Source of the DNA: Escherichia coli
GTDB lineage: Bacteria > Pseudomonadota > Gammaproteobacteria > Enterobacterales > Enterobacteriaceae
Assembly (NCBI RefSeq): GCF_003018255.1
Contig: NZ_CP027440.1
Strand: one strand, 5' to 3'
DNA: 64,000 bases
Within the stretch, counting starts at the first letter, position 1, and each line of letters begins with the position of its first letter. The notes under the pieces were generated by a model, which did not search any database, was not told where the DNA came from, and saw only the letters and a program-made list of their open reading frames with translations. Shown in pieces: positions 3,011 to 64,000 of the stretch. A program made the translations under genes and the position numbers.

Positions 3011-3092
3011 AAGATGACAAGGCGGTGACGGCGTGGGTGAGGGAAAATGGGAGATGGGGCACGGATAAAAAGCAGAATGGCTAAGAACCTTG

Positions 3093-3470
3093 TCAGGTAC
3101 CGCGTTGACGCAAGCGGGTAACGATATCTTCTAACGATACTTTTCCCGCCGCCACATCAACCGTCAATTCTACAAACTCTGGGTTTGCAGCAAGTATGAT
3201 GCCGTTACGTTTAAGGAATAATAGCGTGATAAACAGTGCGGTGCGCTTATTACCATCATTAAAGATATGACCGCGCGAGATTGCCAATAGATGCATCGCC
3301 GCCAGCAGCCAAAGATCAGAAACGCCTTCATACTCATACTTATTCAGTACCCGGTACAAAAGCGCTTCTGCTCGCCCTGGATCGGACATTCCTGTTACAC
3401 CTGGTGTAACGCTAAGCAATTTATCGTGGAAATAAATTATCTCCTCCGCTGAGATAAACTGAATGGTCAT
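3093..3470 (-). CDS. doc: Doc (death-on-curing) Fic-family toxin
   Basis: 125 aa; GMSDPGRAEA and HIFNDGNKRTAL (Fic/Doc motif) closely resemble phage P1 Doc; overlaps the upstream antitoxin by 4 bp. Confidence 0.85.
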   Translation of the reverse strand: MTIQFISAEEIIYFHDKLLSVTPGVTGMSDPGRAEALLYRVLNKYEYEGVSDLWLLAAMHLLAISRGHIFNDGNKRTALFITLLFLKRNGIILAANPEFVELTVDVAAGKVSLEDIVTRLRQRGT

Positions 3471-3688
3471 TTATCCGCTAACTCCTTAATTTCGCTGCCA
3501 TGAATAGCCATGATGGCGTCAAATTCTGCGTCCAGTTTAGCCTTCTGGTAACGTTCAAACTCTTCTGCGCTGATAATCACAGCTGCCTTATGACCACGCC
3601 TCGTGATCGTTACCGGAGTACCTGTCGCCGCTGTTTCCAGAACTAATGCAAGGTTCTGCCGCGCTTCGCTGTAGTTCATGGTATGCAT
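3467..3688 (-). CDS. phd: Phd/YefM-family antitoxin
   Basis: MNYSEARQNL ... AAVIISAEEFERYQKAKLDAEF resembles P1 Phd; GGAGGA Shine-Dalgarno upstream; start chosen at MHTMNYSE (an alternative start is at 3680). Confidence 0.8.
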   Translation of the reverse strand: MHTMNYSEARQNLALVLETAATGTPVTITRRGHKAAVIISAEEFERYQKAKLDAEFDAIMAIHGSEIKELADK

Positions 3689-3699
3689 GATATCCTCCA

Positions 3700-6532: not shown

Positions 6533-7455
6533 ACTTTCTCTACCTCCGGGCGACCCAGAATACCGGTCGGCATCACCAGCAGCACCAGGATCAGCAGGGC
6601 GAATGAGACCACATCTTTATATTCCGTACTCAGATAGGCAGAAGAGAGCGCCTCCGCAATCCCCAGGATCAGCCCGCCAATCATCGCCCCCGGAATGCTG
6701 CCAATCCCACCGAGCACCGCAGCGGTAAAGGCTTTCATCCCGGCCATAAAGCCGATGTAAGGGTTAATTACGCCGTAGAACTGACCGAGCAGCACGCCCG
6801 CCACTGCCGCCATCGCCGCGCCAATCACAAAGGTCAGCGCAATCACCCGGTCGGTGTTGATGCCAAGCAGGCTCGCCATTTTCAGATCTTCCGCGCAGGC
6901 ACGGCAGGCGCGCCCCATACGGGAATAGCGAATGAAAATCGTCAGCGCCAGCATGGCGAGGAAAGTAACAATCCATATCACCGCCTGCATGGTGGTAATA
7001 GAGGCAGAGAAGTTTTCGCTATGGCCCACCACCCACTGACCGTTAAACAGGCTGGGCAGCGCCACGTCGCGCGAACCTTCGGTCAGGCTGACGTAGTTTT
7101 GCAGGAAGATAGACATGCCGATTGCGGAAATAAGCGCAATCAGGCGCTTAGAGTTACGCACCGGACGATAGGCTACCCGTTCGATACTCCAGCCGTAGGC
7201 GCTGGCAATGACGATTGCGCCGACGAATCCCGCCGCCACCAGCAGCCAGCCGGTATCAATGCCCATCATCATCAGTGCGGCGATGATCATAAAGGAGACA
7301 TAGCTACCAATCATATAAACCTCGCCGTGGGCGAAGTTGATCATGCCGATAATGCCGTAAACCATGGTGTAGCCGATGGCTATCAGCGCGTAGGTACTGC
7401 CCAGCGTGACGCCGTTAAACATCTGCTGCAAGAAATACAAAAACTGCTCAGACAT
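6529..7455 (-). CDS. livH: Branched-chain amino acid ABC transporter permease LivH
   Basis: 308-aa multi-TM ORF, 4-bp overlap with livM. Confidence 0.9.
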
Positions 7456-7502
7456 AAGGTAACCTTTCTAAAACCGCCCGCATTTCACGGGCGGTGGGAT
7501 GA

Positions 7503-8612
7503 TCACTTGGCTGCCGTCGATGAACCGTCGGCGTGCCACTGGAAGACACCAAAATCAAATCCCTTAAGATCGCCTTTTTCATCCCAGTTCAGCGGCCCAA
7601 TCACGGTGTTTGCACCGTTAGCTTTTAAATCTTTCACCAGCGCCAGCGGCTCATCGCTGCCGGTACGCTCAAGGGCAGTCGCCAGAGATTGCACCGCCGC
7701 GTAGGTGATCCAGACATAAGGTCCGGACGGATCTTTCTTGTCTGCTTTCAGCGCATCAACGATGCCTTTGTTTGCCGGGTCCTGGTCATAGCGTTTTGGC
7801 ATAGTGACCAACATACCTTCGGCGGCATCACCAGCAATGTTCGACAGCGACGCATTACCCACCCCTTCCGGCCCCATAAACTGAGTTTTCAGGCCAACGG
7901 AACGGGCCTGGCGCAGCATCTGCCCCATTTCCGGGTAGTAACCGCCGTAGTAAACGAAGTCGATGTTTTCTTTTTTCAGGCGGGCGATCAGCGCGGAGAA
8001 ATCTTTCTCACCAGCGGTAATGCCGTCGAAGAAGACGACGTTGGCATTGGCTGCTTTCAATCCGTCCTGCACCGAACGCGCCAGCCCTTCGCCATACTGT
8101 TGTTTGTCGTGAATGATGGCGATGCGCTGGGGCTTCACCGTCTCAAGAATGTATTTTGCCGCCGTTGGCCCCTGGGAAGAGTCCAGACCGGCAGTACGCA
8201 TGATGTATTGATAACCGCGTTGGGTCAGCTCCGGATTGGTCGCTCCCGGCGAAATCATCAGAATACCTTCGTCTTCGTAGATATCTGATGCAGGTTGGGT
8301 AGAGGAGGAACACAGGTGCCCAATAACGTATTTAATGCCGTCGTTAACGATTTTGTTGGCGACCGCAACGGCTTGTTTCGGGTCGCAGGCGTCGTCATAT
8401 TCCACGCCAACCAGCTTATCGCCTTTAATTCCCCCTTTGGCATTAATGTCTTTAATCGCCTGACGCGCGCCGTTAAATTCCATATCGCCCCACTGGGCAA
8501 TCGGGCCGGACATCGCGCCGACAACGGCGACTTTAATATCGTCAGCCATAGCGGTGTGTGAAATTGCCAGTGCAATCATCCCTGCGATGATAGTTTTCGC
8601 ATTCCGTTTCAT
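7503..8612 (-). CDS. livK: Leucine-specific periplasmic binding protein LivK
   Basis: Start at [23 protein letters not shown] (signal peptide), 369 aa; paralogous to the livJ product. Confidence 0.9.
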
Positions 8613-27234: not shown

Positions 27235-30038
<2,804 letters not shown>

Positions 30039-30240: not shown

Positions 30241-33200
30241 ATGAGCGGAAAACCGGCGGCGCGTCAGGGCGACATGACGCAGTATGGCGGTAGCATTGTC
30301 CAGGGTTCTGCCGGGGTACGTATTGGTGCCCCCACCGGTGTGGCCTGTTCGGTGTGCCCCGGCGGGGTGACGTCCGGTCATCCGGTCAATCCGCTGCTCG
30401 GTGCGAAGGTCCTTCCCGGCGAAACCGACCTTGCCCTGCCCGGCCCGCTGCCGTTCATTCTCTCCCGCACCTACAGCAGTTACCGGACAAAAACGCCCGC
30501 GCCGGTGGGGAGCCTCGGCCCCGGCTGGAAAATGCCTGCGGATATCCGCTTACAGCTGCGCGATAACACACTGATACTCAGTGATAACGGCGGCAGAAGC
30601 CTGTATTTTGAGCACCTGTTTCCCGGTGAGGACGGTTACAGCCGCAGCGAGTCACTCTGGCTGGTGCGCGGCGGCGTGGCGAAACTGGATGAAGGTCACC
30701 GGCTGGCCGCACTCTGGCAGGCGCTGCCGGAAGAGCTTCGCCTGAGTCCGCATCGTTATCTGGCGACGAACAGTCCGCAGGGGCCGTGGTGGGTATTCGG
30801 CTGGTGTGAGCGGGTGCCGGAGGCGGATGAGGTGCTGCCTGCGCCGCTGCCGCCGTACCGGATACTGACCGGGCTGGTGGACCGCTTCGGGCGCACACAG
30901 ACGTTTCACCGTGAGGCTGGCGGCGAATTCAGCGGCGAAATCACCGGCGTGACCGACGGCGCAGGCCGTCACTTCCGGCTGGTACTGACCACGCAGGCGC
31001 TGCGGGCAGAAGAGGCCCGGCAGAAGGCCACTTCCGGCGGGACGGAACCGTCCGCTTTTCCTGATACCCAGCCGGACTACACGGAATATGGCCGGGACAA
31101 CGGTATCCGTCTGTCTGCCGTGTGGCTGACGCACGACCCGGAATACCCGGAGAATTTACCTGCCGCGCCGCTGGTACGCTATGGCTGGACGCCGCGCGGC
31201 GAACTGGCGGCGGTGTATGACCGCAGCAATACACAGGTGCGCAGCTTTACTTACGATGATAAATACCGGGGCCGGATGGTGGCGCACCGTCACACGGGCC
31301 GGCCGGAAATCCGTTACCGTTACGACAGTGACGGGCGGGTGACAGAACAGCTAAACCCGGCAGGCTTAAGCTACACGTATCAGTATGAGAAAGACCACAT
31401 CACCATCACCGACAGCCTGGACCGCCGTGAAGTGCTGCACACGCAGGGCGAAGGCGGGCTGAAGCGGGTGGTGAAAAAGGAACACGCGGACGGCAGCGTC
31501 ACGCAGAGTCAGTTTGACGCGGTGGGCAGGCTTAAGGCACAGACGGATGCCGCAGGCCGGACGACTGAGTACAGCCCGGATGTGGTGACCGGACTCATCA
31601 CGCGCATCACCACGCCGGATGGCAGGGCATCGGCGTTTTACTATAACCACCACAGCCAGTTAACGTCAGCCACCGGGACTGACGGGCTGGAGTTGCGCAG
31701 GGAATATGATGAATCCAGCCGTCTGATTCAGGAAACTGCCCCTGACGGCGATATCACCCGCTACCGTTATGATAATCCACACAGTGACTTACCCTGCGCA
31801 ACGGACGATGCCACCGGCAGCCGGAAAACCATGACATGGAGCCGTTACGGTCAGTTGCTGACCGTCACTGACTGTTCCGGTTATGTAACCCGTTATGACC
31901 ATGACCGTTTTGGTCAGATGACGGCGGCGCACCGCGAGGAAGGGCTGAGTCAGTATCGCGCATACGACAGCCGTGGACAGTTAATTGCGGTGAAAGACAT
32001 GCAGGGCCATGAAACGCGGTATGAATACAACGCCGCCGGTGACCTGACCGCCGTCATTGCCCCGGACGGCAGCAGAAACGGGACACAGTACGATACGTGG
32101 GGAAAGGCCATCCGTACCACGCAGGGTGGTCTGACGCGCAGTATGGAATACGATGCTGCCGGACGGGTCATCCGCCTGACCAGTGAAAACGGCAGCCACA
32201 CCACCTTCCGTTACGATGTACTCGACCGGCTGATACAGGAAACCGGTTTTGACGGCCGCACACAGCGTTATCATCACGACCTGACCGGTAAACTTATCCG
32301 CAGCGAGGATGAGGGGCTGGTCACCCACTGGCACTATGACGAAGCAGACCGCATCACGCACCGCACCGTGAAGGGTGAAACCGCAGAACAGTGGCGGTAC
32401 GACGAACGCGGCTGGCTGACAGGCATCAGCCATCTCAGCGAAGGGCACCGGGTGACGGTGCATTACAGGTATGATGAGAAAGGCCGCCTGACCGGTGAGC
32501 GCCAGACGGTGCATCACCCGCAGACGGAAGCACTGCTCTGGCAGCATGAGACCAGACATGCGTACAACGCGCAGGGGCTGGCGAACCGCTGTATACCGGA
32601 CAGCCTGCCCGCCGTGGAATGGCTGACTTACGGCAGCGGCTGGCTGGCAGGCATGAAACTCGGCGACACACCGCTGGTGGATTTCACCCGTGACCGCCTG
32701 CACCGGGAAACGCTGCGCAGCTTCGGCCGTTATGAACTCACCACCGCTTATACCTCTGCCGGGCAGTTACAGAGCCAGCACCTGAACAGCCTGCAGTATG
32801 ACCGCGATTACACCTGGAACGACAACGGCGAACTCATCCGCATCAGCAGCCCGCGACAGACCCGGAGTTACAGCTACAGCGACTCCGGCAGGCTGACCGG
32901 CGTCCACACCACCACCTCAAATCTGGATATCCGCATCCCGTATGCCACGGACCCGGCAGGTAACCGCCTGCCCGACCCGGAGCTGCACCCGGACAGCACC
33001 CTCAGCATGTGGCCGGATAACCGTATCGCCCGTGACGCGCACTATCTTTACCGGTATGACCGTCACGGCAGGCTGACAGAGAAAACCGACCTCATCCCGG
33101 AAGGGGTTATCCGCACGGATGATGAGCGGACTCACCGGTACCATTACGACAGCCGGCACCGGCTGGTGCACTACACGCGGACACAATATGCAGAGCCGCT

Positions 33201-34158
33201 GGTCGAAAGTCGCTATCTTTACGACCCGCTGGGCCGCAGGGTGGCAAAACGGGTATGGCGGCGTGAACGGGACCTGACGGGCTGGATGTCGCTGTCACGG
33301 AAACCGGAAGTGACCTGGTACGGCTGGGACGGCGACCGGCTGACCACGATACAGAACGACAGAACCCGCATCCAGACGGTTTATCAGCCGGGGAGCTTCA
33401 CGCCACTCATCAGGGTCGAAACCGCCACCGGAGAGCTGGCGAAAACGCAGCGCCGCAGCCTGGCGGATGCCCTTCAGCAGTCCGGCGGCGAAGACGGTGG
33501 CAGTGTGGTGTTCCCGCCGGTGCTGGTGCAGATGCTCGACCGGCTGGAAAGTGAAATCCTGGCTGACCGGGTGAGTGAGGAAAGCCGCCGCTGGCTGGCA
33601 TCGTGCGGCCTGACGGTGGAGCAGATACAAAACCAGATGGACCCGGTGTACACGCCGGCGCGAAAAATCCACCTGTACCACTGCGACCATCGCGGCCTGC
33701 CGCTGGCGCTTGTCAGCACGGAAGGGGCAACAGAATGGTGCGCAGAATACGATGAATGGGGCAACCTGCTGAATGAAGAGAACCCGCACCAGCTGCAGCA
33801 GCTCATCCGCCTGCCGGGTCAGCAGTATGATGAGGAGTCCGGCCTCTATTACAACCGCCACCGCTATTATGACCCGCTGCAGGGGCGGTATATCACTCAG
33901 GATCCGATTGGGCTTAAGGGGGGATGGAATTTTTATCAGTATCCGTTGAATCCGATCACTAATATAGATCCTTTAGGATTAGAAACACTAAAATGCATTA
34001 AGCCACTGCATTCAATGGGCGGAACTGGTGAAAGAAGCGGTCCAGATATATGGGGGAATCCGTTCTATCATCAATATCTTTGTGTCCCAGATGGTAAAGG
34101 GGACTATACTTGTGGTGGCCAAGACCAACGGGGAGAATCAAAAGGAGATGGTCTATAG
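30241..34158 (+). CDS. rhsB: Rhs family protein (RhsB-locus): N-terminal region, YD-repeat core ending at PxxxxDPxGL, C-terminal toxin domain truncated by an in-frame TAG
   Basis: 1305 codons; many YD repeats (RYRYD, RYDH, YEYN, TFRYD ...); core-end motif [11 protein letters not shown] near 33945-33977; GC-rich core and AT-rich C-terminus; located between nikR and yhhJ. Confidence 0.88.
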
Positions 34159-34434
34159 GGGCCAGGTAAAGCAAGTAATGATACAAAAGAAGCTGCTGGC
34201 CGTTGTGACCTCGTTGAAACCGATAATAGTTGTGTGGAGAACTGTTTAAAAGGGAAGTTTAAAGAGGTAAGGCCGCGTTATTCTGTATTGCCTGATATAT
34301 TCACACCTATAAATTTAGGGCTATTTAAAAACTGCCAAGACTGGTCTAATGATTCTTTAGAAACATGTAAGATGAAGTGCTCCGGAAATAACATTGGACG
34401 TTTTATTAGATTTGTATTTACCGGAGTGATGTAA
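34159..34434 (+). other. Same-frame continuation of the Rhs C-terminal domain after the TAG (Cys-rich, uncharacterised)
   Basis: No stop in the rhs frame from 34159 to TAA at 34432-34434; encodes GPGKASNDTKEAAGRCDLVETDNSCVENCLKGKF ...; no Shine-Dalgarno before the internal GTG. Confidence 0.55.
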
Positions 34435-34760
34435 TGAAATGTATTATTTTTTTATTCAGAGCTATATGGCTGGCTTTATCGCTTTTAATACTATTCTTTT
34501 CCATGCATAGACTTTCACTATTAGACTCCACTCGTGATGTGAGCGAGTTAATTAGTCTCATGTCTTATGGAATGATGGTAATATGTTTTCCAACAGGCAT
34601 AGTATTCTTTATTGCTCTAATATTTATAGGGACTGTTTCAGACATTATTGGCGTAAGGATTGATAGTAAGTATATTATGGCGATAATAATATGGCTTTAT
34701 TTTCTGTCAGGAGGGTATATTCAATGGTTTGTATTAAGTAAGCGCATTATAAACAAATAA
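34434..34760 (+). CDS. Putative Rhs immunity protein (small 3-TM membrane protein)
   Basis: 108 aa; ATG overlaps the upstream TAA (TAATG); GGAG Shine-Dalgarno 7 nt upstream; three hydrophobic helices; AT-rich. Confidence 0.6.
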   Translation: MKCIIFLFRAIWLALSLLILFFSMHRLSLLDSTRDVSELISLMSYGMMVICFPTGIVFFIALIFIGTVSDIIGVRIDSKYIMAIIIWLYFLSGGYIQWFVLSKRIINK

Positions 34761-34794
34761 ATTAAGTTAATTGCTCTTGTTATTATATGTAACC

Positions 34795-35275
34795 TGGGCA
34801 TTGATATCCCGTATGCCACAGACCCGGCAGGCAACCGCCTGCCCGACCCGGAGCTGCACCCGGACAGCACCCTCAGCATGTGGCCGGATAACCGTATCGC
34901 CCGTGACGCGCACTATCTTTACCGGTATGACCGTCACGGCAGGCTGACAGAGAAAACCGACCTCATCCCGGAAGGGGTTATCCGCACGGATGATGAGCGG
35001 ACTCACCGGTACCATTACGACAGCCGGCACCGGCTGGTGCACTACACGCGGACACAATATGCAGAGCCGCTGGTCGAAAGCCGCTATCTTTACGACCCGC
35101 TGGGCCGCAGGGTGGCAAAACGGGTGTGGCGGCGTGAACGGGACCTGACGGGCTGGATGTCGCTGTCACGGAAACCGGAAGTGACCTGGTACGGCTGGGA
35201 CGGCGACCGGCTGACCACGATACAGAACGACAGAACCCGCATCCAGACGGTTTATCAGCCGGGGAGCTTCACGCC
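34795..35275 (+). pseudogene. Displaced rhs core fragment (near-identical copy of 32930-33407)
   Basis: ORF 34878-35312 encodes [26 protein letters not shown] ... QPGSFTP, matching the internal rhsB segment; the copy ends abruptly at the H-repeat junction. Confidence 0.8.
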
Positions 35276-36570
35276 CAGGGAAAGATCATCAGAAGTACAC
35301 TTTTTGTACTAAGTAATTCGCATTTTATGTTTAAAAATCGAGATATTCCTCATTACCTGAAGCTGTTTTTTATTGCGTATACATGATCAAATACTCCTTA
35401 CATAATTAAGGAGAACAAAATGGAACTTAAAAAATTGATGGAACATATTTCTATTATCCCCGATTACAGACAAGCCTGGAAAGTGGAACATAAATTGTCG
35501 GATATTCTACTGTTGACTATTTGTGCCGTTATTTCTGGTGCAGAAGGCTGGGAAGATATAGAGGATTTTGGGGAAACACATCTCGATTTTTTAAAACAAT
35601 ATGGTGATTTTGAAAATGGTATTCCTGTTCACGATACCATCGCCAGAGTTGTATCCTGTATCAGTCCTTCAAAATTTCACGAGTGCTTTATTAACTGGAT
35701 GCGAGATTGCCATACTTCAGATGATAAAGACGTCATCGCAATTGATGGAAAAACACTCCGGCATTCTTATGGCAAGAGTCGCCGCAGGGGAGCGATTCAT
35801 GTCATTAGTGCGTTCTCAACAATGCACAGTCTGGTCATCGGACAGATCAGGACGGATGAGAAATCCAATGAGATTACAGCTATCCCTGAACTTCTTAACA
35901 TGCTGGATATTAAAGGAAAAATAATCACAACTGATGCAATGGGTTGCCAGAAAGATATTGCAGAGAAGATACAAAAACAGGGCGGTGATTATTTATTCGC
36001 TGTAAAAGGAAATCAGGGGCGGCTAAATAAAGCCTTTGAGGAAAAATTCCCACTGAAAGAATTAAATAATCCAGAGCATGACAGTTACGCAATTAGTGAA
36101 AAGAGTCACGGCAGAGAAGAAATCCGTCTTCACATTGTTTGCGATGTCCCTGATGAACTTATTGATTTCACGTTTGAATGGAAAGGTCTGAAGAAATTAT
36201 GCGTGGCAGTCTCCTTTCGGTCAATAATAGCAGAACAAAAGAAAGAGCCAGAAATGACGGTCAGATATTATATCAGTTCTGCTGATTTAACCGCAGAGAA
36301 GTTCGCCATAGCAATCCGAAACCACTGGCACGTGGAGAATAAGCTGCACTGGCGTCTGGACGTGGTAATGAATGAAGACGACTGCAAAATAAGAAGAGGA
36401 AATGCAGCAGAATTATTTTCAGGGATACGGCACATTGCTATTAATATTTTGACGAATGATAAGGTATTCAAGGCAGGGTTAAGACGTAAGATGCGAAAAG
36501 CAGCCATGGACAGAAACTATCTCGCGTCAGTCCTTGCGGGGAGCGGGCTTTCGTAATCTTGCCCTGATCA
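35268..36570 (+). mobile_element. H-repeat (H-rpt) element, ISAs1 family
   Basis: Contains the 378-aa transposase ORF; both flanks are repeated in the second copy downstream. Confidence 0.75.
35420..36556 (+). CDS. yhhI: H-repeat-associated ISAs1-family transposase (YhhI-like)
   Basis: 378 aa, [32 protein letters not shown] ..., DDE transposase-like. Confidence 0.85.
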
Positions 36571-36611
36571 GACCACCGTTGATCACCATATCCATGAGTT
36601 TATGAATAAAG

Positions 36612-37192
36612 GGCAGGGAAAGATCACGCAACGCTGCTTTTTTGTACTAAATAATTCGCACTAAATATTCAATAATTGAGATATTCCTTATTACCTAAAG
36701 CTGTTTTCCATTGCTTATACATGATCAAATACTCCTTACATAATTAAGGAGAACAAAATGGAACTTAAAAAATTGATGGAACATATTTCTATTATCCCCG
36801 ATTACAGACAAGCCTGGAAAGTGGAGCATAAATTGTCAGATATTCTACTGTTGACTATTTGTGCCGTTATTTCTGGTGCAGAAGGTTGGGAAGATATAGA
36901 GGATTTTGGGGAAACTCATCTCGATTTTTTGAAGCAATATGGTGATTTTGAAAATGGTATTCCTGTTCACGATACCATTGCCAGAGTTGTATCCTGTATC
37001 AGTCCTGAAAAATTTCACGAGTGCTTTATTAACTGGATGCGTGACTGCCATTCTTCAGATGATAAAGACGTCATTGTAATTGATGGAAAAACGCTCCGGC
37101 ACTCTTATGACAAGAGTCGCCGCAGGGGAGCGATTCATGTCATTTCTCGCGTCAGTCCTTGCGGGGAGCGGGCTTTCGTAATCTTGCCCTGA
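36612..37192 (+). mobile_element. Second, internally deleted H-repeat copy
   Basis: Same 5' flank and first ~130 codons as the first copy (36758-37141), then joined directly to the element's 3' terminus ([11 protein letters not shown] coding end). Confidence 0.75.
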
Positions 37193-37209
37193 ATACCGGA
37201 CTGAGTATA

Positions 37210-37244
<35 letters not shown>

Positions 37245-37345
37245 TGGTCAGTTCATAAACGCCTTATCCGGCCTAAAAAAAACTAAAATTCAATAAATTG
37301 CACCAATGCGTAGACCCTATAAGCTTACGCATCGGGCAACTGTAA

Positions 37346-38473
37346 TTACGCCATTGTCCCAATTGTCTTCCTGAATCTCAACAGTGCGATGGTGAAAAAC
37401 GCGCCGCCAATTGCCATCAGTGTCAGGAACTGCGGCCAGACGATTTCGAATCCGGCACCACGGTAGAGAATGGCCTGCGCGAGGCTAACAAAGTGTGTCG
37501 TCGGCATGGTCAGCATAATGTCCTGCACCATCTGCGGCATACTTTCGCGCGGCGTGGAACCACCGGAAAGCATTTGCAGCGGCAGCAGCACCAGAATCAC
37601 CAGCAGCCCCAGTTGCGGCATTGAACGCGCTATCGTCCCCATAAAAATACCGATTGACGTGGTGGCAAACAGACTGAGCGCCACGCCCAGCATAAACAGC
37701 GGGATCGAGCCTTCTATCGGTACGCCCAGCACGCCTTTTACCATCAGCACCAGCGATAATCCCGACACCACCAGCACCACCAGCCCCATCGACCAGACCT
37801 TTGCCATCATGATCTCAAACGGCGTTATCGGCATCACCAGTAAGTGTTCCACCGTGCCGTGTTCACGCTCGCGGATCAGCGCCGATCCGGTCAATACAAT
37901 CGCCAGCATGGTAATGTTGTTGATGATCGCCATCACCCCGCCAAACCACGCGGGATCAAGGTTCGGGTTAAAGCGCATCCGTGTTTCCAGCGATACCAAC
38001 GGTTCGCTGTTATCACGGTAGCGCGCGACAAAGCTGTTCACTTCACCGTTGATAATATTCTGGATATACCCATTGCCGGTAAATGCCTGGCTCATGCGCG
38101 TGGCATCGACGTTCACCTGAATATCCGGCTGGCGTCCGGCGAGGACATCACGCTGAAAATTAGGCGGAATATTTATCGCGAAGGTATAACGTCCGGCGTC
38201 CAGCCCGGCATCCATCTCATCGGCGGTGATCATCTCCGGTGGCAAAAACCACGGGCGATAGAAGCTGTTAACGATCCGGTTCGATAACTGCGATTGATCC
38301 ATATCGGCAATGGCGATCGGCGCGAGGTTCAACGATCCTGGCGTAACGGTCGCTGACGAATACACCGACACCGTAAACGAGAAGACAATCAGCGTCAGCA
38401 TCGCTTTATCACCGAGCAGACTGCGCAACTCTTTGATACCCAGATTAAAAATATTACGTAAATGGCGCATCAT
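37346..38473 (-). CDS. yhhJ: ABC-2 type transporter permease YhhJ
   Basis: Start at MMRHLRNIF; ATG overlaps the rbbA stop (ATGA); multi-TM, 375 aa. Confidence 0.85.
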
Positions 38474-41205
38474 CCCTCCTGTTTTTTCAGCAGCAGGATG
38501 CTTAAGCCCATCACCAGCGGTATGGCTATCAGCAACGGGATAAAAAGTTGCCACAAATCAGTCAGATCCAGCGCTTTCGAGAACGTTCCGCGGGCGATAG
38601 TCAGAAAATGACTGGTCGGGTAAACCTCGCCGATCCAACGTCCTGGACCTTCCAGCGAAGCTACCGGATCGATCATCCCGGAAAACTGTGTCGCCGGGAT
38701 CAACGTGATAATTGCCGTACCAAAAATGGCGGCAATCTGGCTTTTCATAAAGGTGGAGATCAGCAGCCCCATTCCGGTGGCGATGATGATATACAGCAGC
38801 GCCGCCAGGGTGAGAGTCAGGAAACTGCCTTTATGCGGTACGCCAAATACAAATACCGACAGGGCGCAGAGCAGGAAAAAGTTCAGCATCCCCAGCGCGA
38901 TGTATGGCAGCTGTTTGCCAAGCAAAAATTCGCTACGGGTGGTGGGGGTCACGTAAAGGTTGATAATCGACCCTAGCTCTTTTTCCCGCACCACGCTAAG
39001 GGCGCTTAGCATTGACGGGATCATCATCAGCAGAAGCGGGATCACCGCCGGAACAATCGCCGGCAGGCTTTTTACGTCCGGGTTATAGCGATAGCGCGTC
39101 TCAATATTCATCAGCCCGCTTTGGCTGGCGGGTGTGGACTGTCGGCTCGCCACATCCTGTAGCCAGCTCTGGTGCATGGCCTGCACGTAGCCTTTTACCG
39201 TTTCGGCGCGGCTCGGCATCGCACCGTCGATCCAGACACCGAGTTCCACGGGCGTACCACGCGCGATATCGCGCCCGAAATTAGGAGGGATCTCAATTGC
39301 CACCGTGATATCGCCCGCACGCATCCGACGATCAAGCTCGTCATAACTGGTGAGCGGCGGCTGTTCGATAAAGTAACGGGAACCGGAGAGATTGAGCGTC
39401 CACGCCTGGCTACTGACGGTTTGATCGCGGTCAAGCACCGCAAAGCGCAGGTTTTCCACATCCATACTGATGCCGTAACCCATTATCAGCATCAGGATCA
39501 CCGTTCCCATCAGCGCCAGCGTCGAACGTACCGGATCGCGTCGCAGTTCCAGCGCTTCGCGGCGGCTGTAGCTAAACAGACGGCGCAGGCTAAATCCCTG
39601 ACGCGCCGCGTGGGTGGTGTCGTGTATCACGGGCGGCGCTTCGGCTTCGTTGCTCTGCCCTGCCGCTTCCTGCAAACAGGCGATAAATGCCTCTTCCAGA
39701 CTTGCGGCTCCGCGTTTCTCAACCAGTTCCTGCGGTGTCCCGCTGGCGAGCACTTTTCCGGCGTGCATCAGTGAGATACGGTCGCAACGTTCCGCTTCGT
39801 TCATAAAGTGGGTGGAGATGAAGATAGTCACTTTGTCCTGGCGCGAGAGATCGACCATCAACTGCCAGAACATATCCCTCGCCACCGGATCGACGCCAGA
39901 AGTAGGCTCATCGAGGATTAACATCTCCGGGCGATGAATCACCGCCACCGCCAGCGAAAGCCGCTGGCGAATGCCGAGCGGCAATGACTCCGGCAGAACA
40001 TCTTCAACGTCGTTGAGCTTAAAACGCTCGCTCATTTCAGCCACTCGCGCGGGAATTTCCGCTTCCGGGATGTGAAACAAACGGGCATGTAACTCAAGGT
40101 TTTGCCGCACGGTGAGTTCGTTATAGAGCGAAAACGCCTGCGACATATAGCCTACCCGACGGCGGGTATCGATATCTTTTGGATCAACCGGTTGCCCAAA
40201 CAGCCACGCCTCACCTTCGCTGGCGGGCAGCAGTCCGGTGAGCATTTTCATGGTGGTGGATTTACCGCAGCCGTTCGAACCGAGGAATCCAAAAATCTCC
40301 CCGCGTGGAATGCGGAAATTGACGTGATCAACGGCAACGAAGGAACCAAAACGCATGGTCAGATCGCGCGCTTCGATGGCAATCTCTGCGTTTTCAGGGT
40401 GATACGGTGGGATCACTACCGCCTGATGCGCCTGGCGTTGCGCTTGCGGTAACAGATTTATAAATGCTTCTTCCAGCGTGGCGCTTTGCGTTTGCTGCCG
40501 CAGCTCTTCGGCGCTGCCGGTTGCCAGCACTTCTCCGGCATTCATCGCTACCAGCCAGTCGAAGCGTTCGGCCTCTTCCATGTAGGCGGTGGCGACCAGC
40601 ACGCTCATATTGCTCTGCCGCTGGCGAATGCTGTCGATCAAATCCCAGAACTGGGCGCGGGAGAGCGGGTCAACCCCCGTTGTTGGCTCATCAAGAATCA
40701 ACAGTTCCGGGTCGTGGATTAACGCACAGCACAGCCCAAGTTTTTGCTTCATCCCGCCGGAGAGTTTCCCTGCCGGACGATCACGAAACGGTGCTAACCC
40801 GGTGCTGGTCAGCAGCTCATTGATTCGCACTTCCCGCTCCGCTTTGTCGTGACCGAACAGGCGAGCGAAAAAATCGACGTTTTCATACACCGACAAGGTG
40901 TGGTAGAGGTTTTTGCCCAGCCCCTGCGGCATCCAGGCGATGCGCGGGCAAACGTCGCGGCGATGCTTCGGGTCGCGCATATCGCCGCCCAGCACCATCA
41001 CGCTGCCCTGCTCAATGACGCGGGCACCGGAAATCAACGACAACAAGCTCGATTTACCGACACCATCCGGTCCAATCAGCCCGACCATGCAACGGGCCGG
41101 AATATCGAGTGTGATATTGTTCAGCGCAACGGTTTTTCCATAATGCTGGCTCACGCCCGCCAGTTGCGCGACAGGCGGGACGGGAACCAGTTCCAGATGC
41201 GTCAT
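38470..41205 (-). CDS. rbbA: Ribosome-associated ATPase RbbA (fused tandem ABC ATPase plus permease domain)
   Basis: 911 aa; two Walker A motifs ([18 protein letters not shown]) and a C-terminal membrane domain. Confidence 0.9.
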
Positions 41206-42269
41206 TGCGGCAACCTCACCACCAGGTCGTCAGGCCACGGAAGTTCTTCATTCACCCGCACCCACGCTACGCCCGGCAATCCGGTTTTGACATATTCCAG
41301 ATGCTGCTGGAGTAATTCCGGTGGGATACGCGCTTTGACACGGAACATCAATTTCAGCCGCTCATCGCTGGTTTCGACGGTTTTTGGCGTGAACTGGGCG
41401 ACGCTGGCGACAAAACTGATGGTCGCGGGAATACGCAGATCTGGTGCAGCATCAAGAATCAAACGTGCTTCACCGCCCAGTTTCAGCGTGCCCGCCTGTT
41501 CGGTTGGCAGAAAGAAGGTCATATAGACGTCGCTGAGATCGACCATATTCAGCACCCGACCGCCTGCCGCCAGCACTTCGCCTGGCTCGGCAACCCGATA
41601 CTGCACGCGTCCGTCACGCGGGGCTTTCAGTTCGCTGTCATCGATATCTGCGGCAATGCGCCGTTCAGTGGCTTGTGCCGCTTCGACGCGAGTTTGCGCC
41701 TGAATGATATTGGTGCGTGCCGCCTCTATAGCGGCTTTAGAAGCAGAAACCTGAGCTTTTGCCGATTCCAGCGCAGCTCGGGCGCTCTCAGCGGCGGCGC
41801 GGTCGTCATCCAACTGTTGCGCAGAAATTGCCCCCCGTTGTGCCAGTGAGCGGGAACGCGTATGACGTTTTGCTACGGAGTCCAGTTCTGCCTGGCGTTG
41901 ATTAACCAGCGACTGTGCGGCACGAGTTTCGCTTTGGCGTTGCTCCAGCAAAGCCTGCGCGGCGGCAACGGCACTTTGTGCTTCTTTGATTTGCGCGATG
42001 GCTTCCAGTCGCTGTTCCTGCAACACGCGAGTATCCATCTTCGCCAGCACTTCACCTTCTCGAACAAACTGGCCTTCTTTCACCAGAATGGTGTCGATAC
42101 GCCCGGCAATTTTGCTGGCGATATCCACTTCCGTCGCTTCAATGCGCCCATTGCTGACAGCAAAGCCTTCCGGCACACCCGCCGGGCGCAACAGCCACCA
42201 CGCCACGACGGCAGCCACCGCCAGTGCCCCGACAACCCACCACGCCAGATGGCGCTTACTCTTATCCAT
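41202..42269 (-). CDS. yhiI: HlyD-family membrane fusion protein YhiI
   Basis: 355 aa, N-terminal TM segment, coiled-coil region, 4-bp overlap with rbbA. Confidence 0.85.
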
Positions 42270-63242: not shown

Positions 63243-63302
63243 ACGATTGATCAATATAAAGAGGCCCAGCAATAAATAGCCAGACCTCCCGTTAATTATA
63301 CG

Positions 63303-64000
63303 TTATGCAGTAACGACTTCCGGTATCAGCGAAGCAATTTGCTTACGCCATTGCGCTTGCTCCTGTTCGCCTTCTGTACGTTGACCATAAAGTTGCGCTA
63401 TCTGCGTACCATCATGGGCAAACAATTCCAGACTGGTTACGTAGCCATCGCTGGTCGGTTTACGGGTAACCCAGGCTTCAGCAATGCTCTCTTCTAATAG
63501 ATGAAGAGTAAACGTCGGGTTGAAAATATTCAGCCAACCTTTCATTGGCACCACTTTTTCTACCACACCAGTGAAAATCTGTACGCAGCCACGGTTGCCA
63601 ACAAACACCATGATTTCATTGCCATCCTGCTGTGCAGATTCAAGAATTTGCGCCAACGCACTGTTGGATACTTTGCAGGCCAAATCATCTGCCACCAGAT
63701 TGAACGCCTGTTGGCGCGTCAGGTTGTGGCGCTTGAGCAACGTAAAAAACTGATGAACGTCGGTCATCGCCCGCCACTCTTGCTCGACCACACTGGCATC
63801 GGCTCGCGTTTGAACAACTGGCGCATCAACGGCTTTTAACTCAAGCGGCATATTCTCATCGGCGATAAACCGTGCCAGAAGCTCACTCCATGCCGCCATA
63901 TCGGTATTGTCGGTGGCATAAACTTTTAGTAATGCATCGCCCTGATGATCAAAGAACTGAATACTCTGGCGTTCGCCACGAGTCGTATTTTCTTTAATGT
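63303..64000 (-). CDS. chuS: Haem-degrading/utilisation protein ChuS (HemS family), C-terminal part; 5' end beyond window
   Basis: Frame is open to the window edge; product FFDHQGDALLKVYATDNTDMAAWSELLARF ... resembles ChuS/HemS/ShuS; position after dctR as in chu-positive E. coli. Confidence 0.6.
   Translation of the reverse strand, partial: IKENTTRGERQSIQFFDHQGDALLKVYATDNTDMAAWSELLARFIADENMPLELKAVDAPVVQTRADASVVEQEWRAMTDVHQFFTLLKRHNLTRQQAFNLVADDLACKVSNSALAQILESAQQDGNEIMVFVGNRGCVQIFTGVVEKVVPMKGWLNIFNPTFTLHLLEESIAEAWVTRKPTSDGYVTSLELFAHDGTQIAQLYGQRTEGEQEQAQWRKQIASLIPEVVTA

Follow-up and report, generated by a model that had tools for sequence, protein, structure and literature searches.

[quoted passage not shown] This arrangement raises the question of what the shorter stretch is, how it came to lie there, and whether it retains any activity. 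Here, we describe an analysis of a 64-kb window, by which we mean the whole stretch of DNA that was analyzed, together with a comparison to complete E. coli genomes. We present evidence that the segment is, with a probability of roughly 0.88, a non-functional remnant of a dissociated rhs 3' end that was left behind by C-terminal displacement. It is the remnant of an orphan rhs-CT module and not itself a module.

The locus reads, in order, nikA-E and nikR, rhs, ybfB, a 45-bp junction, the core fragment, a first H-repeat, an IS630 remnant and a second H-repeat, past which yhhJ and rbbA close it on the opposite strand. The rhs gene (30241-34434), ybfB (34434-34760) and the fragment (34806-35275) all lie on the plus strand. 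The individual features are the following:

30241-34434, plus strand: full-length rhs gene, composed of the RHS core and an RhsC-type tip and interrupted by an amber codon (open reading frame list and translation)
32935-33404, plus strand: upstream repeat copy, within the main rhs core, 466/470 identical to 34806-35275
33901-33915, plus strand: DPIGL motif, residues 1221-1225, boundary between core and variable tip (translation)
33916-34431, plus strand: RhsC-type toxin tip (mismatches per 200 bp)
34156-34158, plus strand: amber codon W1306*, which shortens the tip by 91 residues (TAG here versus TGG in relatives)
34434-34760, plus strand: ybfB, 108 aa, presumed immunity gene of the RhsC-type tip (open reading frame; annotation in relatives and in K-12)
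34761-34805, no strand assigned: AT-rich junction between ybfB and the core fragment, 45 bp, GC 0.29, kept wherever the cassette occurs
34806-35275, plus strand: core fragment, 156 in-frame codons (RHS_core profile positions 913-1068 of 1261; annotation in relatives)
35276-36566, plus strand: H-repeat 1, a 1,291-bp ISEc1 of the ISAs1 family (profile match, terminal repeats and comparison)
36567-36613, minus strand: remnant of an IS630-family transposase gene, 47 bp (longer in other strains)
36614-37191, plus strand: H-repeat 2, 578 bp, carrying a 713-bp internal deletion (right junction as in K-12 H-rptB)

An initial annotation of this DNA had described a displaced, near-identical copy of an internal segment of the rhs core, and the alignments bear this out. 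By repeat search, MAFFT and blastn, positions 34806-35275 match 32935-33404 at 466 of 470 bases, in direct orientation and free of gaps, an identity that the alignment indicates is far beyond chance. The two copies start 1,871 bp apart, and the same three methods detected no third copy in the 64-kb window. The right end of the repeat, at 35275, had been placed exactly; the starts given for the two copies, 34795 and 32930, were a few bases too generous, the roughly 15 bases to the left of the downstream copy (34791-34805) being only weakly similar to their upstream counterpart (10/15).

The reading frame of the fragment is open for 156 codons, ending in QPGSFTP, and a profile search matches it to positions 913-1068 of the 1261 positions of the NCBIfam RHS_core model NF041261 (E 1e-104). 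Because the homology is limited to this interval, the fragment contains neither the Rhs-associated core domain with its DPxGL motif nor a toxin domain, as the initial annotation had proposed; an immunity gene is likewise missing. The claim that the copy stops at the left junction of an H-repeat is also correct: homology ends at 35275, and the next base, 35276, is the first base of H-repeat 1, the left end of the 1,291-bp ISEc1. Of the features of an orphan rhs-CT, the segment has the position downstream of a main rhs gene and the partial core homology, and lacks the DPxGL/tip region and the immunity ORF. RefSeq/PGAP annotates the segment in relatives as a pseudogene, 'RHS element protein, incomplete, missing N- and C-terminus'. 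The fragment encodes nothing useful, and its sole activity is to provide 470 bp of 99% direct homology with the main core.

The main rhs gene occupies the interval from nikR to yhhJ, where K-12 carries rhsB. Its RHS core is complete, as shown by the intact orthologue in strain JNE112863, which scores 2,619 bits on NF041261 and is annotated there as rhsC; in the window the tip ends 91 residues early at the amber codon. The GC content falls from 0.62 in the core to 0.405 in the tip across the DPIGL motif. Compared with K-12, the tip differs from rhsC by 0-3 mismatches per 200 bp and from rhsB by more than 100. Judged by these comparisons, the main gene is of the RhsC type at the rhsB position, not a K-12-type rhsB. 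Naming it rhsB, as had been done, thus holds for its place on the chromosome and fails for its tip and immunity gene, which are of the RhsC/ybfB type. A Pfam search with the JNE112863 orthologue, chosen as query since the window tip carries the amber stop, returned no family for the toxin tip, and a profile search returned no NCBIfam match for ybfB. The TAG at 34156-34158 is specific to the window, JNE112863 and DETEC-S792 both having TGG, and it may be either a real inactivating mutation or a sequencing error.

Several observations concern the surroundings of the locus. In nikE (28825-29632) an A-run at 29133-29139 has one more A than in JNE112863, splitting the open reading frame into 28825-29166 and 29147-29632; the extra base may reflect a genuine frameshift or an error in sequencing the homopolymer. 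The annotation of JNE112863 places a doc/phd-type toxin-antitoxin pair between ugpB and livF, at about 3090-3690 of the window (L007 3836-4431); in K-12, ugpB and livF are presumably adjacent and without such a pair. The yhhJ-rbbA flank (37193-42000) is at most 97.4% identical to all complete E. coli genomes except three, and chuS/chuA lie at the right end of the window (~63300-64000). The flank divergence and the presence of chuS/chuA indicate that the window comes from a sparsely sampled, divergent lineage.

The origin of the fragment is revealed by the junction that precedes it. Among 5,426 complete E. coli genomes, 2,733 carry the tip/ybfB/junction unit, each as a single copy, and in the majority of these carriers its conservation is 99% or more. 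The junction from ybfB into the fragment is identical at 89-90 of 90 bases at three Rhs loci: kdp in K-12, rpmE in four strains, and nik in DETEC-S792. At the kdp-ybfA locus of K-12, the junction and the core start that come after rhsC-ybfB are those of the window, with 574 of 585 bases identical in an alignment of the window to K-12 that runs from within ybfB to the break of the fragment. There, the sequence goes on as ybfO for 1,434 bp, taking in a DPxGL end and a tip, and ybfC comes next. At the rpmE-yiiX locus of the four sampled strains, the junction (89/90) leads into a full 966-bp core piece, DPxGL, another tip and dsORF-f3. A different displaced tip is found downstream of the junction at each locus (L003 6777-7618; L010-L013 ~6700-8050; window 34434-35275). 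Since at kdp and rpmE the shared junction is followed by 966 bp of core and another tip, the copy in the window represents the start of a dissociated rhs 3' end; it is the first 470 bp of the displaced end. The initial annotation had suspected the decayed remnant of an orphan module, and this reading is upheld by the full modules to which the junction leads at kdp in K-12 and at rpmE in the four strains, the window version being cut at 470 bp.

The junction itself is part of the upstream cassette rather than of ybfO, given that at rpmE it stands before a different tip. Furthermore, at the kdp locus of JNE112863 (L006 4195-8960) the main rhs gene is fused to a ybfO-type tip and a ybfC-like gene, a region 97% identical to K-12 ybfO-ybfC. 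The fusion of this tip to a main gene shows that the orphan ends are alternative ends of main genes, and the kdp state of JNE112863 is the one expected before insertion of the RhsC-type cassette or after its excision. Thus, a single kind of cassette keeps its junction fixed at all three loci, and the resident end changes from one locus to the next, the pattern that is predicted by C-terminal displacement. Displacement of C-terminal ends through homologous recombination in the conserved core is the model of Jackson et al. 2009 (PMC2935791).

The truncation of the fragment coincides with H-repeat 1. This element is 96.6% identical to K-12 H-rptB and encodes an intact transposase (yhhI, 35420-36556, 378 aa; NF033564, E 1e-123). 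Its terminal inverted repeats are imperfect (CAGGGaAAGAT/CAGGGcAAGAT), CAGGGAAAGAT at one end and CAGGGCAAGAT at the other, with 10 of the first 11 bases matching. No target-site duplication was found around it, the left flank reading GGGGAGCTTCACGCC and the right flank ATCAGACCACCGTTG. Its absence suggests that DNA next to the element was deleted, or that two copies of the element recombined. The 47-bp spacer that separates the two H-repeats proved to be an IS630 transposase remnant; it is absent from the K-12 RhsB and RhsC elements. Strain 746 and at least 177 genomes carry a longer version of this remnant, which in strain 746 occupies the same locus, after further orphan rhs/immunity modules and directly before the deleted H-repeat 2 and yhhJ. 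The right junction of H-repeat 2 with the yhhJ flank is that of K-12 H-rptB, K-12 carrying at this place a single full-length H-repeat with the same right junction. The presence of the remnant/H-repeat 2 pair before yhhJ in strain 746, and of the remnant/H-repeat 2 junction in at least 177 other genomes, identifies this pair as an old scar at the locus.

The remaining core was found on neither side of either H-repeat in the window, and no immunity ORF follows the fragment, the interval from the fragment to yhhJ being filled by ISEc1, the IS630 remnant and the deleted H-repeat. Since H-repeat 1 has no target duplication and its right flank is an IS630 remnant that elsewhere lies further downstream, an IS-associated deletion probably removed the rest of the module. 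The simplest reading of the truncation is a deletion associated with ISEc1, or else recombination between two ISEc1 copies. No complete E. coli genome keeps the pre-truncation state at the nik locus, nor was an untruncated fragment at nik found in any strain among the close relatives.

These observations can be assembled into a sequence of three steps. A cassette in which the final ~966 bp of core precede the RhsC-type tip, with ybfB and the 45-bp junction behind it, would have recombined into the resident rhs gene at nikR-yhhJ through the conserved core. The insertion would have duplicated a piece of core and pushed the end of the resident gene downstream as a silent fragment, whose start would be set by the cassette at a position equivalent to 32935. 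Later, the arrival of an ISEc1 copy and a deletion would have removed everything between base 470 of the fragment and the old IS630 remnant, including what was left of the core, its DPxGL end and the former toxin/immunity pair. We infer the order of these events, along with the identity of the displaced tip and the recombination outcomes considered below, from the observed repeat and its boundaries, the junction at three loci, the IS ends, the missing target duplication and the population frequency.

How the cassette reached the nik locus is a separate matter. Jackson et al. (PMC2935791) postulated an excised circular intermediate, and by such a route the RhsC-type tip/ybfB cassette could have moved from kdp to nik within one genome, a course of events that we regard as improbable. 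It would fit the kdp locus of JNE112863, where a main rhs gene with a ybfO-type tip and ybfC is the state that excision leaves, and the nik locus, where cassette, junction and core repeat form the state that re-integration would produce. The presence of a single cassette per genome, at three loci with one identical junction, is also compatible with within-genome movement. The kdp state can equally be ancestral, however, and a transfer from another strain accounts for the data just as well. If the movement did take place, a single genome would have preserved the displacement cycle in both its halves.

The locus may also bear marks of exchange between lineages. The window and DETEC-S792 (L009) differ at 3 positions across 2.8 kb (32923-35733), a tract that spans the 3' part of the core, the tip, ybfB, the fragment and the first 458 bp of H-repeat 1, and they diverge by 2.5-4% in the upstream core, the flanking genes and the rest of H-repeat 1. 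Such low divergence within divergent flanks indicates a recombination tract, the block having been exchanged or retained as a unit bounded by the rhs core and the H-repeat. We considered a fixed left edge of the cassette at 32923, within 12 bp of the repeat edge, and rejected it: the patch at 32913-32922 is specific to the window lineage, being common to the lineage's own kdp core and also separating the window from strain 746, which lacks the cassette. The near-identical tract would also fit another account of the fragment, one that we consider doubtful, in which it was truncated elsewhere and imported into nik as one block of core 3' end, tip, ybfB, fragment and H-repeat. The block would have come in by a double crossover whose left arm was the rhs core and whose right arm was an H-repeat, and the fragment would not be the former end of this locus's own rhs gene. 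The near-identical tract ends ~458 bp into H-repeat 1, and H-repeats lie downstream of the Rhs arrays at both the kdp and the nik loci. The RhsC-type tip is linked to nikR in only 3 of the 5,426 complete genomes (JNE112863, JNE23-011 and DETEC-S792), however, and the junction of fragment and H-repeat occurs in the same three and only at nik, leaving no other locus in these genomes as a donor. The near-identical tract would be explained equally well if the structure had formed in place and had then passed between lineages.

The 99.1% identity of the two copies could also suggest that 470 bp of the main core were duplicated locally and recently, in an event unrelated to tip displacement or to any orphan module. 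We judge this very improbable, given that the left junction with ybfB is the same in K-12 and in the rpmE-locus strains, where it leads into full orphan modules, and that the alleles of the fragment at 35081 and 35126 match K-12 ybfO rather than its own main core. Nor is there much to be said for an expressed small gene with a function of its own, which we rate as less probable again. An open frame of 144 codons (34878-35312) does begin at the ATG of MWPDNRIA, but no Shine-Dalgarno-like sequence lies upstream of this ATG, the nearest promoter-like site is at least 190 bp upstream and inside ybfB (34660-34687), the end of the frame 37 bases into the IS is an accident of the junction, and the PGAP annotation treats the segment as a pseudogene. 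Finally, repeats at rhs loci are a known cause of misassembly, and an artefact of assembly would account for a duplicated segment; this explanation can practically be set aside, as the same structure is present in three independent complete genomes, with the same 4 copy-distinguishing differences in JNE112863 and 3 of the 4 in DETEC-S792.

Within genomes, rhs sequences may have been homogenized. From 32591 to 33347 the main core of the window is identical to the kdp-locus core of JNE112863 (L006), lineage-specific alleles included, an identity that suggests homogenization among rhs loci within a genome. Core and fragment share seven alleles against K-12, and the core and fragment of K-12 likewise share alleles with each other. 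With four more genomes added, core and fragment differ by 3-6 bases per 470 bp within genomes, no less than in comparisons with the rpmE-locus strains (0-7). An earlier proposal of strong gene conversion, or concerted evolution, between the copies was downgraded, because within-genome distances are lower only in the contrast with K-12. The comparisons are at most weakly suggestive of, and consistent with, gene conversion between the two copies.

What the fragment can still do follows from its homology with the main core. Between the repeats lie 1,401 bp, in which the final ~500 bp of the core, with DPIGL at 33901-33915, are followed by the toxin tip and ybfB, so that the current toxin/immunity pair does lie between direct repeats, 470 bp long and 99.1% identical where ~480 bp had been estimated. 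In Salmonella, main and orphan rhs sequences sharing 522 bp at 95% identity recombine experimentally, both in culture and in mice (PMC3967940). As this suffices in Salmonella, 470 bp at 99% should be a competent substrate, and we estimate that 470 bp at 99.1% would be ample for RecA recombination. Three outcomes of the RecA type can be envisaged: a deletion of 1,871 bp, amplification of the cassette by unequal sister exchange, and homogenization of the two copies by gene conversion. The predicted product of the deletion is a 1,066-aa Rhs protein that would end inside the H-repeat, without the closing domain, the toxin or ybfB, and would be dead.

The initial annotation had held that recombination could delete or swap the pair. 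Deletion stands; swapping does not, since the truncated downstream copy has no tip. Recombination between the repeats could thus delete or amplify the pair or homogenize the two copies, and a toxin swap would need incoming DNA. Comparison with other strains at the rhsB locus, which had been suggested as a check, yielded no deletion variant: in a search of 5,426 complete genomes, all 3 comparable ones, the only carriers of this junction, keep the full structure without deletion or amplification. Following the argument of PMC3967940, selection should act against losing ybfB as long as the toxin is intact. If the amber codon of the window is real, the constraint on keeping ybfB may be relaxed.

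In the strain itself, instability can be predicted at the repeat, in the form of a 1.9-kb deletion or an amplification, and the repeat is also a trap for short-read assembly. In annotation, the segment should read rhs pseudogene fragment, not gene, and the main gene RhsC-type, not rhsB; beyond correct annotation, its significance is slight. The locus does offer a clean small example of how rhs loci are constructed, with one fixed-junction cassette at three loci and a different resident end displaced at each. Additionally, the window illustrates the erosion of a silent archive of old tips by an insertion sequence. This kind of feature is already known and is ordinary at rhs loci. Descriptions of it reportedly go back to the work of the Hill laboratory on Rhs elements. 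Later treatments are found in PMC2935791, PMC3150448 and PMC3967940, and with the systems described there, and those of K-12, the fragment can be compared directly.

The region downstream of the K-12 RhsB element (yhhH, yrhC, H-rptB/yhhI) shares with the window its chromosomal position and the right junction of H-repeat and yhhJ. It differs in having an rhsB-type tip with yhhH, and no core fragment before its single full-length H-repeat; the same fragment had been expected upstream of K-12 H-rptB, but it is absent there and yrhC is an unrelated sequence. The orphan cdiA-CT/cdiI modules (Poole et al. 2011, PMC3150448) resemble the fragment as displaced toxin/immunity modules that keep upstream coding homology, and are unlike it in belonging to another toxin family and delivery system and in being usually complete. 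The rhs-CT orphan of Salmonella Typhimurium LT2 (STM0292; Koskiniemi et al. 2014, PMC3967940) shares with its main rhs gene, as the window fragment does with its own, a direct repeat of ~0.5 kb on either side of the main tip and immunity gene. In Salmonella the orphan toxin and immunity gene are intact, and recombination yields a new functional toxin, whereas in the window it would yield a truncated Rhs protein without a toxin. In the dissociated rhs C-terminal tips (PMC2935791), a core fragment of the same clade, nearly identical in sequence to the core of the main gene, lies downstream of an intact rhs and its small ORF; here too the window differs, having kept the core part only and lost the tip. 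The closest named relative of the fragment is the 5' end of K-12 ybfO (rhsO, b0703), which has the same ybfB junction and core start and is 97.9% identical to the fragment over its first 470 bp. At kdp-ybfA in K-12, ybfO runs on for 1,434 bp through DPxGL and a tip to ybfC, whereas at nikR-yhhJ in the window the same beginning is stopped by an H-repeat at 470 bp, its tip deleted.
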